In this document: positions 6,061 through 32,146 of the stretch, piece after piece
How the letters are laid out: every line of letters begins with the position of its first letter
Numbering within the stretch: position 1 is the stretch's first letter
Origin: Circinaria calcarea
Taxonomy: Eukaryota
Reading direction: 5' to 3'
DNA: 33,023 nucleotides
Assembly: GCA_051942165.1 (NCBI GenBank)
Contig: JAVECS010000037.1
Span: forward strand, 1 to 33,023
Translations under genes and position numbers: made by a program
The notes under the pieces: generated by a model
Told to the model about the DNA's origin: nothing
The model's input: only the letters and a program-made list of their open reading frames with translations
Databases searched by the model: none

Positions 6061-7102
6061 ATGGAAGCCTTTCAAGATCACATTCTTTTCGAGTCGGAAG
6101 AGCAGCAAGAGACCCAACGCATTCGCCAACGAAACCGGATGGCCAAGCGGGCTTCAAGTATATACAACTACCTGATAGTCTCTGCCTGCTTCCCAACTCT
6201 GACTTCCCACAGGAACACGGCAGCGGCAGCATGGAAAGCACAGTAATGGTGAAATAAAATGCTTGTCAGCGTCGCAAGTTGTGGCGCCGCCATCCGGAAG
6301 CGCCATGCCGCAGCCATCCGGAAGCGCCATGCTGCAGCCATCCGGAAGCGCCATGCCGCAGCCAACGCCGCAGCCAACGCCACATCCAACGCCACAAATT
6401 ATCGGTCGCCACAGTCCTCTAAGTCTCGTACATCCCCAAAGTCCATTCCAAGTGGACAATAGCGAGGAAATTGGAGAGGAGACTAGATCGATGCTCCTCT
6501 ATCAAGATGTACCTGAGCTCTGCATCTGGGATGGCAGCTTGGACGGCACGTTGGATGAGGACTGGAGTGAATTTTGTGACTTGTCAACCAAGCCCACTGT
6601 CCCCGTGTACCCAGATCAGAATAATCACATGGGTTCACACAAATCCCGAGAGATAAGCATTCAAAAGGTATACCATCCACCTCTACCTAGTATGTCAGCG
6701 TTCGATTGACAATGGAAGACCAGCTCACAAGCACCTGTGGAATCTTCGGCAGACATATTGAAGCACAATGAAGGGACACCATCCAGCAGGATCAGTGTTG
6801 ACGGCTTTCCGAGAAGATCAGCGACGCTGCTCCACATTGCGGTCAGGAATGGGAGCACAGGCATACTCTTGTCGTTGATAAAGGCAGGTGCCGATGTCAA
6901 CTCGCGCGACAGTTCCGGCACCTCTCTGTCACATTTGGCGGTTCGGTTTAGGCAAGCAAGCATCTTAAAGGTACTAATTGACCACGGCGCCGACATAAAT
7001 GAGCGGAATGTGGCTGGCATGACGGCCCTCGAAATCGCTGTGAGAGCCCAAGACGAAGAGATTGTGAATGTCTTACTGTCCGGCGGAGCCGAGTTAAACT
7101 AG
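6061..7102 (+). CDS. bANK-type pathway-specific transcription factor (bZIP-like basic region plus C-terminal ankyrin repeats; TOXE/Aps2-like), ~311 aa
   Basis: Exons 6061-6157, 6213-6667 and 6719-7102 join in frame via GT-AG introns. Basic region RIRQRNRMAKRASRTRQR with no evident leucine zipper. Ankyrin repeats TLLHIAVRNG..GADVN, TSLSHLAVRF..GADIN, TALEIAVRAQ..GAELN. Confidence 0.85.
6290..6396 (+). repeat. Coding minisatellite: 3 x 24 bp (PSGSAMPQ) followed by ~3 x 12 bp (PTPQ) inside the TF
   Basis: ccatccggaagcgccatgcYgcag x3, then ccaacgccgcag / ccaacgccacat / ccaacgccacaa. Confidence 0.85.
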
Positions 7103-7502
7103 AGGGCTGTTACGAATCGTAACATGTGACCTGGGACGTACTCCCTCAATATTTACCCCTCGTCTGCAAACATTCTGTGTAGATGATCAATCGTAGACTT
7201 TTTACGCTATATGATTTGACGGAGATTGTTTGGGACATGGGACATTGGACACCCTGTGACTTGACCAACGCGGGGGTTGCGGATATTTTGGTGCTTCCCC
7301 CTCTACTCTACTTCGGGCCATGGAGGAGGAGGATAATCTGAGATCCTGGCTCCGCGACTCTCCAACTACACTCAGAATCGCTTTATTCAAAGACAAGTGA
7401 TACAAAACACTGCTTCAACTACATTGCCAATGCTGAAATTAATGATTGATCGCGTTGAGAGCATTCATTCTAAAATACCCTATTCGCAACGCAAACTCTA
7501 AT

Positions 7503-9628
7503 TCACAGATAATGGCTACGCAATGCCACTGTTTCTTTCACCCGCTGGCTGTACTTCTGCTTTACGAAAGCCTCATAGACCTCGGGGAAACTCTGCGCCA
7601 CCTGAAGCGCATGCTGTCGACTGATCGGTGAGCGTATCACCATACAAGTCGTCCACAACCAGTCGCCTTCCTTACCCCCCAACACTGTGGCTGGTTCGAC
7701 ATATACATTGTGCCGAGAAACGTGTTGCGTCAAGTGGGGATGAGTTTTGGACAGCTCCAAGATTGGACTATAGGAGCTATCTACCGCTTGGTGCTGTAGC
7801 TGGTCCGCTGGATGATCAGGGAACAGAGGCTTAATCTTTTCCAAGCTGACGGGCACAATGCAGTTAATGAGCCATACATTGTCGCAAAGGTCATCCCGAA
7901 GGAAAGGAACTGAAAGCGCCTTGTATCTCGACCAATCTCCGACCGCGCATAGAAGCATCAAGGCCGAAAAGTCGACTCCCCGGGCAATAATGGTGGCGCC
8001 GGAGCTCATCGGTCCGGGCATCCTCGCGTTGACCTCGTGGAGGAAGACCGAGTTCCCCTTTGCACAGTTGACAGTTTCCATAAACTCGAGGTCAGGAACG
8101 GTGGCGCTCTCCGCGAAAACGTACTTCATGGATGAATTACGAATTCTGGCTTCGCAGTGAAACACGCCGGTGTCAAAGCCCTGTTGGCGGACTGCTGCGA
8201 CTACAGCATCAGTGATGGTTTTCTGTTCACTCTTGGGAAGCTTGGAAGGCACGGCTGCCTGCGTTTCCGTGAACAGCGCGCCTGTAGGGTTCTTTGCAAG
8301 ATCTGCAGCACATGGAAAGTCGTCCACAATTTCCGAGAACAAGACTTCGCCATTGAGGAGAACAAGGTTACAATCCACCTCTGGGCCATCAACGTAGGGC
8401 TCAACCACAATCCTCGGATCAGTAGTGGCTTTGCCGACGATCAACGACTTGGACACAGCATCACGTAACTGCAAAACATTGTCTGCCTTGAAGACGCCGA
8501 AGCTTCCCATACCAGCAACGGGCTTGCAGACGATTGGAAAAGCGATGGTGTGGCTAGATTCCAGCCGCAACTCCAACTCGTTCAGCGAAGTGACTGTGAA
8601 ATATTCTTTCTGCTCAGGATCCAGCGTCTGACGTGTGAGATATTTGTTTGTGGATATCGTGAAAGGTTCGGGTCCAGAGGTGAAGAAGCCCAGGTGTCGC
8701 GCTGCCCGAGCTGTCGGCACCATGTAAGGATCCCACGGCCCACAAAGGCCATCGATAGGATCTGGGTAGCTCTCGACCGCATCAACAACTCTGCGCCACA
8801 GACCAGAGTCAGTGGTCATGTCGGCATCAATGTAGCCGTCTAATCCGTACTCCTGCGGTGACTTGTCGGCTTTCAACCAGGGACCAGAACTCATCACCAC
8901 TACTTTGAGATCTAAAGCCTTCACAGCTGCCCATGAAGCTCTTTTGACTGCTATGCGACTCCACATGAGAACACACACCCGACGTTGACGGATTGCCTCG
9001 CGCGATAGCCAGGGATATGAAAGTCTTCGCTCCAGTTCAGTCTCAAGCTGCTGTATTGAGTTTTCGCATAGCGAGAGCGTACAACTGACTACACCAGCGG
9101 ATGCATCGAGAGCCTTTGCAACGTCCTCAGTGGTCATAATCGGGCTGATACTGGCCACTACCTCCTCAAGTGGTGAAAGAAAGCTCTTTGTGGATGAAAC
9201 CACAGCACAATCAGCGACCCGGGATGCCCACGGGTCAGAATGGATGGCATTGCCGCTATTCCTGGGAATCTGGAAGACGGAGAAGCCGTCTTTCTGACTA
9301 ATGCAATGCTGGAGAAATGCTGCTATGGCAGGGCCCTTCGTCAAGCTCAGTTGGTAAGCCTCCGAGCAAGCATGTTGCTCCGAGATGTATATCCCATCAC
9401 CGGCAGCAACTGCGGTTGGGCTTGAACTGCCGGCGGCACGGAATTTAGGCACAATATACAGGTTGCTGAATTGTCCTGATCCTTCGTGCCGTACAAAATG
9501 CCACTCGCAGTCCAGCGATACTGAGTCAGTCAGCGAAGGCAAAGACTAACATGCTGGCTCCAAAATATGAACCGACCTTGTTTGTCGGGCAAGTTCACCC
9601 ACATGAGGAAGCTCCTGCGTTCTGCCAT
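7503..9628 (-). CDS. ATP-grasp amino-acid ligase (fungal secondary-metabolite type), ~689 aa
   Basis: Exon 1 9628-9577 (MAERRSFLMWVNLPDKQ), intron 9576-9521, exon 2 9520-7503. ATP-grasp motifs NKYLTR, PIVCKPVAGMGSFGV, VVEPYVDGPEVDCN, GVFHCEAR, LHEVNARMPG. Confidence 0.9.
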
Positions 9629-30201: not shown

Positions 30202-30344
30202 TTGGGAGTAGAACCCCCACGGCGCTGCATAAGCACCGTAAGCCTGGCGCATCGCGGCGTCATACCTTATCTTTCCTTCCACAGCTCCCTTCAGATGTGT
30301 AGATTCTCCATTGCTGTTGTACTTCACTTCTGTCTGGCGCAAAT

Positions 30345-32146
30345 ATGGCTCAGCATCTCCAGAACGACGGTCAAGGAGCCACTGTCAGTGAGACAAGACC
30401 TCTCCTACCACCGCCGTCGACCGAAACACAGCTTGGCGCTACCAAGCCCATCGCGTCGGCGCGCCGTACAAGTTGTTCATGGCCGTGGATCTATGTCGTG
30501 TTGCTCGGCATTGGCCTTGCTGTTGTTTCGGACATTGGTGAAGATCTCTATGCAGCCCCGAGAATACAACTCTTCGAGTCTGTCGCATGTACTCGCTACT
30601 ATGAGCTGAATGATCCATCGTTGGTTGATCCAAATGCCTCTGTCCCTGAGCGCTTTTGCAAAATCGATCCGGTACAAAGCGAAGTTGCCTCAGTGCTGGG
30701 CTGGCAACTCTTTTTCGACAGCATACCAGCAATCCTGCTTCCCATCCCCTACGGCTATATTGCCGATTCGTATGGACGAAAATGGATTCTGGTGCTGGCA
30801 TTGACTGGCTACACATTGTCATGGGCGTCGACTCTGTTTTTCGTACGTACCACCAATTATCCGACAGTAGTACTTCATGTGCAATTTGTGCTAAAGCATC
30901 CTTGACAGGTTGGAGTACTGAAGTTACCCTTACAATACGTCTGGCTGTCATCGCTCTTTCTCCTTGTTGGCGGTGGTCCAACTACAGGAACAACCTTATT
31001 GACGACCGTTGTTGCGGATGTCGTACCACCAGAGTTCAGGTTAGCCTTGCTCCTATCAATTGCCTTCATAAGCCATGTGCCTGACAAAGTCATTATCTTG
31101 GCAGGAGTACCGTATTCTTCTATCGGTTTTGCACGGATCTCATCGCAGACCTAATTGTTCCCCCAGTTACTTCGGTACTGATGTCTAGAAACATATGGAT
31201 CCCACTCCTGCTTGCGGTATCATTCGAAGGCTTCAGTGTCCTGATAGCATTGGGATTACAGGAAACGTTACCCATGACAGACTCTGTATCCTGTGATGAC
31301 GTCTGTGACTACTCTGAAGTACCCATGAGCAGTGAGGAACCAGATGAATATTCCAAGCCTGGTAGTAACTGGGAGACCTGGCTTTGGCAGACCAAAAACT
31401 CATTTGGCTTTATGACACGAGACCGAACCATTCCAGCTCTAGTGTTTACATTTTTGATTTCAAAAATTGGGCGACAGGCCAACAACGTTCTCTTTCAATA
31501 TGTGTCCAAGAGATATGGTTGGACTCTATCCCAGGCAAGCGTTTCCCCATGTTCTGCTTTCCGCTGCAGTATGAACTTACAGCTAACACGATCAAACACA
31601 TAGGCTGGCCTACTCCTGTCGTTACGTGCAGGCGTGAATATAGCCTTATTTACAATCATTCTACCATCAATAACGACCTTTGCATTTTCGAACACAAATG
31701 CAGCTGCCAAGGATCTCTGGATAGGGAAAGTAAGTATCATTTACTTGACTTTGGGGTCCTTCATACTGTTCTCATCAAATACAGCGGTATTGATGGTAGT
31801 TGGTAAGCAGCATGGTGATGAATCCCATCCCTAATCCCTAGTAGCTAACTCTCTTTGCGAAGGACTCATCATTTCCACTCTTGGCGCGGGCTTCGCACCT
31901 ATCACACGCAGTCTCGTAACGTTCCTCGTAGAATCTCATCACGCAAACCAGACAAGTGATATCGGGCGCCTCTACGCCCTCATCTCTGTCATGGAAGGGA
32001 TAGGAAGCCTTGTGGCCGGTCCGGGCATGGCATGGGCCTTTCGCCTGGGAATGGATTGGGGACGTGCATGGCTTGGTCTACCTTTTGGGTTTGCTACTGT
32101 CCTTTTTGCTATCGTTGCAGTCGTTGTGCTTAATACAAAACTTTAA
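30345..32146 (+). CDS. MFS transporter (efflux pump type), ~513 aa
   Basis: Exons 30345-30842, 30909-31039, 31105-31534, 31604-31802, 31863-32146. ETRPLL N-terminus, GYIADSYGRK (MFS motif A), multiple hydrophobic helices. Intron 31535-31603 is GC-AG. Confidence 0.9.

Follow-up and report, generated by a model that had tools for sequence, protein, structure and literature searches.

The contig JAVECS010000037.1 of the Circinaria calcarea assembly GCA_051942165.1 was analyzed over a stretch of 33,023 nucleotides (positions 1 to 33,023 of the forward strand, hereafter called the window). Between positions 6061 and 32146 this stretch carries eleven neighboring genes that encode a nicotianamine synthase (NAS)-like enzyme, two pyridoxal phosphate (PLP)-dependent enzymes resembling O-acetylhomoserine sulfhydrylases (PLP1 and PLP2), a homoserine O-acetyltransferase, an ATP-grasp ligase, three oxidative enzymes, two transporters, and a regulator. 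The analysis supports a cluster that is real, conserved, and free of a classical core gene (core-less), with an unusual combination of enzymes. Judging from the gene set, we consider it probable that it is a genuine pathway-specific cluster for a small polar compound derived from amino acids, made by the route proposed below. The evidence comes from the enzyme families and the conserved catalytic positions of the NAS-like enzyme, from a promoter box common to the cluster genes, and from the occurrence of the same genes side by side in other fungi.

Gene content and predicted aminocarboxypropyl chemistry

The 148 stop-to-stop open reading frames (ORFs) of at least 70 aa in the window were translated and scanned against Pfam, and spliced gene models were built with a small dynamic-programming script followed by hand correction, the DNA being fungal with short GT..AG introns. 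Eleven ATG-to-stop genes were modeled in 6061-32146 (Table 1). Nine of the 11 models passed a scripted check that the coding sequence begins with ATG, stays in frame, and has one stop only, at its end, and the starts of the DAO-family and NAS-like genes were moved by one codon by hand, to the ATGs at 18394 and 22601. The models are uncertain for the first exon of the ATP-grasp gene, for the middle exon (52 nt) of the 2-oxoglutarate (2OG) oxygenase gene, and for some exact starts. Near end-to-end alignments with Fusarium proteins were obtained for PLP1 (78% identity to P0072/P0075, residues 11-462), PLP2 (83% to FVEG_03153), the AsaB-like dioxygenase (72% to FFUJ_07023, which bears the UniRef name GA4 desaturase), and the major facilitator superfamily (MFS) transporter (67% over residues 19-521 to the MFS half of P0097, a fused NAS+MFS_1 model from F. 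xylarioides).

The Pfam domains found between 6.0 and 32.2 kb were Ank, ATP-grasp_4/ATPgrasp_N, ABC_membrane and ABC_tran (each twice), Cys_Met_Meta_PP (at two loci), DAO, DIOX_N with 2OG-FeII_Oxy, NAS, Abhydrolase_1, and MFS_1. None of the 148 ORFs gave a Pfam match to an AMP-binding, PP-binding, condensation, ketosynthase, or acyltransferase domain, nor to a terpene-synthase, DMATS/prenyltransferase, or IucA/IucC domain, the last being the mark of nonribosomal peptide synthetase-independent siderophore (NIS) synthetases. An earlier reading of this DNA by a model from the letters alone, referred to here as the first-pass annotation, had called the region core-less, and this description holds for nonribosomal peptide synthetase (NRPS), polyketide synthase (PKS), terpene, and NIS domains in every ORF of that size. 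The 11 gene types that it named are all present as complete spliced models with matches in Pfam, TIGR, or the PDB, and its outer limits, the regulator ATG at 6061 and the MFS stop at 32146, agree with ours.

The NAS-like gene is central to the predicted chemistry. Its exon 2 scored 81.1 bits against PF03059 NAS (cut-off, 27.1), the NAS domain in the Fusarium fused model P0097 scored 85.5 bits, and the third exon of the gene could be recovered because the orthologues share a C-terminal tail (...MAYP-PA..IVxKLRPV..NGE.G...FIISRV). A PDB sequence search with exon 2 alone gave no match. The orthologue P0003 from Calycina marina, which is 74% identical to the exon-2 query of the window, was modeled with AlphaFold2 (AF2) from an alignment of 12 orthologues (mean pLDDT, 81). 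In a Foldseek search with this model, ranks 1-8 were occupied by MtNAS and CntL (TMq, 0.61-0.69; MtNAS TM, 0.69/0.79), with other methyltransferases at a TMq of ≤0.48; the sequence identity of the model to the solved NAS/CntL enzymes was 15-18%. In agreement with the fold result, MtNAS was the best PDB sequence for the 12-orthologue profile, with a weak E value of 0.022. The residues E99 and Y128, invariant in all 12 orthologues, align with E81 of MtNAS, which is named in PDB titles, and with its Y107, which we take to be catalytic, and the orthologue motif GSGAMPET aligns with the glycine-rich S-adenosylmethionine (SAM) loop GGGPLPLT of MtNAS. The likeness to NAS, MtNAS, and CntL thus covers the Pfam domain, the nearest folds, the E81/Y107 positions, and the SAM loop, the latter features being read from the orthologues. 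Based on the MtNAS/CntL-like predicted fold, the aligned Glu81 and Tyr107 positions, and the loop, the NAS-like enzyme is very probably a transferase that moves the aminobutyrate (aminocarboxypropyl) moiety from SAM onto an amine.

The two PLP enzymes may provide a second source of the same unit. PLP1 matches Cys_Met_Meta_PP on three exons and TIGR01326 on two, its exons spanning profile positions 1-52 and 115-381; PLP2, whose gene is divergent from the NAS-like gene, scores 332 bits with Cys_Met_Meta_PP and 394 bits with TIGR01326. Both fit TIGR01326, the model for O-acetylhomoserine aminocarboxypropyltransferase. LolC of the loline pathway carries out a PLP gamma-replacement with O-acetylhomoserine that gives an N-(3-amino-3-carboxypropyl) amino acid, and LolC, Fub7, and CndF all use O-acetylhomoserine as the electrophile to place a 3-amino-3-carboxypropyl group onto a nucleophile. 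PLP1 and PLP2 are 58% identical to each other, whereas each has its own Fusarium orthologue at 78% and 83%, respectively, which argues that the duplication is old and that both copies have been kept. The donor O-acetylhomoserine would come from the MetX/Met2-type acetyltransferase, which has an Abhydrolase_1 domain and whose two exons, scored one by one against a TIGR01392 (MetX_acetyl) cut-off of 500 bits that applies to the whole protein, reached 235.5 and 105.2 bits and jointly span the model end to end. The aminocarboxypropyl chemistry put forward in the first-pass annotation is therefore backed by these family assignments together with the conserved catalytic positions of the NAS-like enzyme.

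Alternatively, the acetyltransferase and at least one of the PLP enzymes could be supply copies of the methionine pathway that lead from homoserine through O-acetylhomoserine to homocysteine and feed SAM to the NAS-like enzyme, which would then build the skeleton alone. The best PDB sequence matches of PLP2 are nearly equal for Fub7 (8erb; 4e-104, 351 bits) and a yeast-type homocysteine synthase (8ovh; 5e-100, 338 bits), the TIGR01326 model covers both PLP enzymes, and fungal clusters such as that of fusaric acid are known to contain supply copies of amino-acid genes. However, two paralogues that are only 58% identical, each with a conserved Fusarium orthologue, exceed the need for supply, and neither methionine synthase nor SAM synthetase was found in the window with Pfam. 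We regard this explanation as unlikely and prefer a role of both PLP enzymes in building the product.

The ATP-grasp enzyme contains the domains ATP-grasp_4, Dala_Dala_lig_C, and ATPgrasp_N, its sole PDB sequence match is the L-amino acid ligase BL00235 (3vot; E value, 1.5e-9), and its orthologues in Fusarium, Glarea, Calycina, and Beauveria are 60-65% identical; a search of the ESM Atlas with its N-terminal 215 residues gave no usable match. The DAO-family enzyme (PF01266; E value, 6e-56) has weak matches to glycine/sarcosine oxidase and to the MnmC, pipecolate oxidase, and ThiO models, all of which oxidize C-N bonds. The 2OG-Fe(II) oxygenase contains DIOX_N and 2OG-FeII_Oxy domains and an HxD...H motif in its translation, and its best PDB sequence matches are 1-aminocyclopropane-1-carboxylate (ACC) oxidases (E value, 4e-15). 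The second dioxygenase, of the AsaB/NvfI type, had no match in Pfam; it matches the PDB sequences of the 2-OG dioxygenase 7eus and of NvfI, and its translation shows an HVD...H triad. The ABC transporter has the ABC_membrane and ABC_tran pair twice, and ABCC2, ABCC5, MRP1, ABCC3, and ABCC4 are its top-ranked PDB matches.

Table 1. Genes, gene relic, and promoter boxes of the cluster region (positions in the window)
Feature	Position	Strand	Size	Remarks
bANK regulator	6061..7102	+	314 aa	Exons 6061-6157, 6213-6689, 6732-7102
ATP-grasp ligase	7503..9628	-	689 aa	Main exon 7503-9520; exon 1 9577-9628 uncertain
ABCC-type ABC transporter	10394..14689	+	1369 aa	4 exons; divergent from ATP-grasp gene
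PLP1, O-acetylhomoserine sulfhydrylase-like PLP enzyme	15220..16880	+	463 aa	4 exons
DAO-family FAD-dependent amine oxidoreductase	16976..18394	-	472 aa	Single exon
2OG-Fe(II) oxygenase	19922..21080	+	~330 aa	3 exons; middle mini-exon (52 nt) uncertain
NAS-like aminocarboxypropyl transferase (putative)	21562..22601	-	307 aa	Exons 22259-22601, 21745-22205, 21562-21681
PLP2, second O-acetylhomoserine sulfhydrylase-like PLP enzyme	23150..24650	+	484 aa	2 exons
Pyruvate dehydrogenase E1-alpha gene, degenerate fragment	25019..25620, possibly to 26075	-		Pseudogene relic
AsaB/NvfI/"GA4 desaturase"-type 2OG-dependent dioxygenase	26499..27778	+	406 aa	2 exons
MetX/Met2-type homoserine O-acetyltransferase	28371..29569	-	383 aa	2 exons
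MFS transporter	30345..32146	+	521 aa	5 exons; MFS_1; divergent from acetyltransferase gene
TGACNTTGCA-like boxes	5764; 9824, 9850, 9954, 10005; 15004, 15052; 19624, 19666	.		≤1 mismatch
TGACNTTGCA-like boxes, continued	22727, 22919, 22938, 23008; 26130, 26173; 29871	.		≤1 mismatch

Regulator, promoter box, and conservation in other fungi

The first gene of the cluster encodes a regulator with the bANK layout, that is, a basic region and ankyrin repeats with no evident leucine zipper. In the spliced translation, the N-terminus carries a bZIP-type basic region, RIRQRNRMAKRASRTRQRQ, which is interrupted by intron 1 and is also given as ...QRIRQRNRMAKRASRTRQRQ...; the stretch NRMAKRASR was seen by eye in the spliced model. 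The C-terminus carries ankyrin repeats (Ank/Ank_2 on 6710-7099 in Pfam). The protein resembles the ToxE-type bANK regulators in having an N-terminal bZIP-like basic region and C-terminal ankyrin repeats; the tox-box of ToxE presumably differs from the box found here. The regulator gene contains a 24-nt coding tandem repeat at 6285-6364, and the repeats at 6285-6393, with periods of 24 nt and 12 nt, encode PSGSAM/PQPT. The DNA contigs of run X1, which represent a near-identical, collinear relative with about 98% identity over 6000-25999, differ inside this repeat by a total of 9 nt, a multiple of 3.

The first-pass annotation had stated that the genes share a promoter motif and left it unspecified. 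We found a TGACNTTGCA-like box in all seven promoter regions. Its 10-mer center word TGACTTTGCA is present in seven of seven when up to one mismatch is allowed, whereas 25 resampled sets reached 4-5 of seven. With at most one mismatch, TGACNTTGCA has 24 sites in the window compared with an expectation of 10.7 ± 3.6, a number reached in none of 100 shuffles, and 16 of the 24 lie inside 4960 nt of promoter DNA that make up 15% of the window. There is no site left of 5132 or right of 29880 in the window, which fits the borders of the cluster. Since the cluster regulator has a bZIP-type basic region, the TGACNTTGCA box is a reasonable candidate for its binding site. The exact 8-mer GACATTGC was tried as the motif and rejected: it is present in four of the seven promoters in five copies and nowhere else, yet this is not significant, the same level being equaled by 67 of 300 resamples and, with random pieces from outside the promoters, by 199 of 300 sets.

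Synteny in other fungi was judged from neighboring protein accessions, locus tags, and shared contigs. Adjacent Fusarium homologues were found for the NAS-like, ATP-grasp, PLP1, PLP2, AsaB-like, MFS, acetyltransferase, and DAO genes. In F. verticillioides, the acetyltransferase (EWG40929), NAS-like (EWG40931), and PLP2 (EWG40932) proteins have adjacent accessions, and the ATP-grasp gene FVER14953_03154 lies beside _03153 by locus tag. The adjacent accessions in F. fujikuroi are KLO88940 (ATP-grasp), KLO88941 (PLP2), and KLO88944 (acetyltransferase). The locus tags H9Q74_005107 (PLP2), 005108 (NAS fused to MFS), and 005109 (acetyltransferase) in F. xylarioides and ACHAPJ_004298, 004300, and 004302 in F. 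lateritium tell the same, and in F. chuoi the DAO homologue LB505_003989 (63% identity, partial) is eight tags away from the acetyltransferase LB505_003997. Similar pairs are present in F. circinatum, F. mexicanum, F. anthophilum, F. graminum, and Fusarium sp. NRRL 25303, and in F. heterosporum the ATP-grasp and acetyltransferase homologues are on contigs of equal listed size. Outside Fusarium, the NAS-like gene lies next to the ATP-grasp gene, or a few genes away from it, in Beauveria bassiana (PMB70827 and PMB70828), Glarea lozoyensis (EPE28428 and EPE28431), and Fonsecaea erecta (AYL99_01780 and AYL99_01788), and Calycina marina has homologues of both. Additional contigs each hold two or three cluster genes; one JGI contig carries a 76% homologue of the acetyltransferase and a 55% homologue of the DAO enzyme.

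Neighboring cluster genes are fused in the public Fusarium models P0071, P0083, P0097, P0030, and P0004, which are 757-2473 aa long. The over-long F. fujikuroi models P0071 and P0083 join PLP2, ATP-grasp, and AsaB-like genes, and P0071 alone includes PLP1 as well. In the NAS-like models of the Fusarium fujikuroi complex, the last exon is in the wrong frame.

The first-pass annotation had made its proposal depend on the co-occurrence of the genes in other genomes, and adjacent genes are indeed seen in many Fusarium genomes and in Beauveria, Glarea, and Fonsecaea. The rarity that it implied was not borne out, since the gene set is also present in well-studied Fusarium genomes, where it is not annotated as a cluster. 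These data bear on the idea of a chance or catabolic grouping, for example one that takes up and degrades opine-like compounds or nicotianamine from plants. Opine catabolism also uses DAO-type oxidases and transporters. However, many Fusarium species and no fewer than three further fungal genera have kept the neighborhood, three of the enzymes (acetyltransferase, ATP-grasp, and NAS-like) serve anabolism, and the genes have a common promoter box and their own regulator, all of which makes this idea highly improbable. From the sequences compared, the view that the neighborhood is a cluster and not a chance grouping is supported.

A metagenome scan with the ATP-grasp alignment returned 29 loci, none of which holds the orthologous cluster (tblastn with the 11 models). 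One contig (L002:3795-11057) carries a divergent pair of an ATP-grasp gene (43%) and an ABCC gene (50-66%), with the other cluster genes absent and only an LRR domain found in its flanks. The promoter-box scan of this contig gave six sites, a number reached in 27 of 200 shuffles, and its divergent promoter contains two tandem TGACTCTGCA, a weak hint only. The ATP-grasp|ABCC pair may be a mobile two-gene module common to different clusters. The loci L016 and L017 (about 660-1880 and 9990-11400) combine a homologue of the acetyltransferase (34-49%) with an ATP-grasp paralogue (31%) at a distance of 8 kb, which hints at another type of core-less cluster with the same two enzyme families.

Proposed route, candidate products, and comparison with known systems

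A route can be proposed in which each step is assigned from the enzyme families. The MetX-type acetyltransferase would convert L-homoserine to O-acetyl-L-homoserine, from which PLP1 and PLP2 would each exchange acetate for a nucleophile and so attach a 3-amino-3-carboxypropyl unit, as in LolC, Fub7, and CndF. The NAS/CntL-like enzyme would use SAM to place another aminocarboxypropyl unit on an amine. The DAO-type flavoenzyme may then oxidize a C-N bond, the two 2OG-dependent oxygenases may hydroxylate or desaturate the backbone, and the ATP-grasp ligase may form an amide bond with an amino acid. The product, a putative nicotianamine- or mugineic-acid-like polyamino-polycarboxylate pseudopeptide, would be exported by the MFS and ABCC pumps, and the bANK regulator would activate the genes, probably through the TGACNTTGCA boxes.

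Several points speak against this proposal. The proposal is drawn from the genes, and sequence does not reveal which nucleophiles the PLP enzymes use or which acceptor the NAS-like enzyme takes. The acetyltransferase with one PLP enzyme could merely supply homocysteine, methionine, and SAM. For the NAS-like enzyme, the profile alignment with MtNAS is the weak one given above, and the structure model is that of an orthologue and not of the protein from the window itself. The promoter motif was discovered in the same data that scored it. As for conservation, the evidence covers the eight genes other than those for the regulator, the ABCC pump, and the 2OG oxygenase, and the adjacency of the DAO gene rests on the one Fusarium locus-tag pair and the one shared JGI contig.

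Within the proposed pathway, two kinds of product have to be weighed. One is a metallophore of the nicotianamine/mugineic acid type for Zn, Fe, Ni, or Cu, exported by the pumps. Every known relative with the NAS/CntL fold produces a metal chelator (nicotianamine, thermonicotianamine, or staphylopine, according to PDB titles), the three enzymes predicted to transfer aminocarboxypropyl units match the three-unit build of nicotianamine, and in grasses mugineic acids are tailored by 2OG oxygenases. However, the systems for nicotianamine, thermonicotianamine, and staphylopine have partners that differ from those of this cluster: no CntM, CntK, NAAT, or DMAS partner is present in it, and Pfam revealed no equivalent of the opine dehydrogenase (CntM), the aminotransferase (NAAT), or the reductase (DMAS) in the window. 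An importer for the loaded chelate is not evident, the regulator is pathway-specific and not a metal sensor, and the shared box is not known as a zinc or iron element. A metallophore is thus a possible product, which we propose tentatively. The more specific suggestion, that several fungal classes make an undescribed nicotianamine/mugineic-acid-like chelator from two donors (O-acetylhomoserine and SAM), which is then oxidized, capped by the ATP-grasp enzyme, and secreted, is rather speculative. If true, fungi would have their first secreted metallophore system of the nicotianamine type, with a new building route.

The other candidate is a toxic non-proteinogenic amino acid, released as a di- or tripeptide antimetabolite, in which case the ATP-grasp enzyme would ligate the peptide and the pumps would serve self-protection. 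The sole PDB match of the ATP-grasp enzyme to a bacterial L-amino acid ligase and the presence of two pumps are consistent with it, as is a relic of the housekeeping gene for pyruvate dehydrogenase E1-alpha inside the cluster. Clusters with self-resistance copies can leave such relics. However, this copy is just a degenerate fragment, there is no indication of a target, and the NAS-like enzyme would be superfluous to such a design, which leaves this product doubtful.

The E1-alpha fragment, which the first-pass annotation did not mention, sits between PLP2 and the AsaB/NvfI-type dioxygenase gene. It covers only positions 187-295 of the 300 in the E1_dh profile and scores 67 bits with TIGR03182 (cut-off, 394), and the ORFs upstream of it contain no Pfam domain. 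The fragment probably has no part in the pathway and might have been left by the duplication of a housekeeping gene. In run X1, a second contig of much greater depth matches a short piece at 25888-25934.

Compared with known systems, the gene company of the NAS-like enzyme stands out: it is grouped with a pair of PLP gamma-replacement enzymes as well as an acetyltransferase and an ATP-grasp ligase, a setting for which searches of open-access full texts gave no described NAS. Pfam found no opine/octopine dehydrogenase (CntM) domain in the window, and on account of this absence the cluster is not a cnt-type opine operon. The loline pathway has the same kind of PLP gamma-replacement (LolC), whereas the other Lol genes are not represented here. 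The fusaric acid cluster likewise combines an acetyltransferase (Fub5) with an O-acetylhomoserine sulfhydrylase-like enzyme (Fub7, the best solved relative of PLP2), and FUB5 is 51% identical to an exon of the acetyltransferase of the window. However, the PKS Fub1, the NRPS-like Fub8, and the FMN oxidase are missing from the window, and in Fusarium the cluster acetyltransferase P0124/P0125 (55%) belongs to a protein cluster distinct from that of P0137 (51%), which is named FUB5 in its source. As there is no PKS or NRPS-like gene in the window, the present cluster cannot be that of fusaric acid. Among the known Fusarium products, moniliformin, ethylene/ACC, and fusaric acid were considered and rejected on the basis of their known chemistry and the missing core genes.

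The ank (NK13650) cluster of Aspergillus thermomutatus, which encodes the arginine cyclodipeptide synthase (RCDPS) AnkA and the NIS synthetase AnkE, is also core-less by standard tools and likewise includes a PLP enzyme along with an ABC transporter and an ATP-grasp enzyme, as described in PMC11610942 and in an excerpt of PMC12568646. The difference is that AnkA and AnkE are not in the window and that, in the same article and excerpt (PMC11610942; PMC12568646), the NAS-like gene is not part of ank. An RCDPS of the AnkA type has no detectable domain; as every gene of the present cluster has a recognized family, no such enzyme is expected here. With neither a cyclodipeptide synthase nor an NIS synthetase, the cluster is not the ank cluster. 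The statement of the first-pass annotation that the gene set matches neither the fusaric acid nor the NK13650 cluster is in agreement with this absence of PKS, NRPS-like, NIS, and unassigned genes.

Searches of open-access full texts, including ones for FVEG_03152-03154, FFUJ_07023/07024, and GLAREA_09551, gave no description of the gene set; there is a minor but appreciable chance that the cluster has already been characterized in MIBiG, in supplements, or in subscription journals. Mining tools keyed to NRPS, PKS, or terpene cores would miss it. Its carriers include plant pathogens (the Fusarium fujikuroi complex), the insect pathogen Beauveria bassiana, the industrial fungus Glarea lozoyensis, and the black yeast relative Fonsecaea erecta, and its product could bring to light a fungal system of metal scavenging or of antimetabolites that matters for infection. 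The identity of the product would add a new class of small molecules to fungal chemistry and would reveal the joint role of two diverged PLP enzymes that use O-acetylhomoserine and an NAS-like enzyme. The cluster is a good target for heterologous expression, and its enzymes are candidates for the production of non-canonical amino acids.

Flanking genes, close relatives, and insertions

The left flank of the cluster contains a 718-aa Gln/Gly/Asn-rich ORF at 320-2473 (+) without a Pfam domain and a RING-finger gene at 3059-3787 (-), neither of which carries the promoter box.

A contig of run X3, from a second organism, spans 8934-22310 of the window. Over 8934-18433 merely 160 letters differ, in contrast to 19507-22310 with the 2OG oxygenase and NAS-like genes, where the divergence is heavy and consists mostly of C>T (179) and G>A (190) changes. 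This excess resembles the pattern of repeat-induced point mutation (RIP) and suggests that the cluster is decaying in the X3 organism.

A 677-nt stretch at 18433-19111, just upstream of the DAO start codon, is AT-rich (GC, 0.43) and is missing from the contigs of X1 and X3, both of them related organisms. The same DAO|2OG intergenic region contains, at 19256-19506, an element resembling a miniature inverted-repeat transposable element (MITE), in which 39-nt terminal inverted repeats (97% complementary) surround 173 nt. The contigs of runs X1, X7, and X2 omit 254-259 nt exactly at this position, which indicates that the MITE-like element is a strain-specific insertion.

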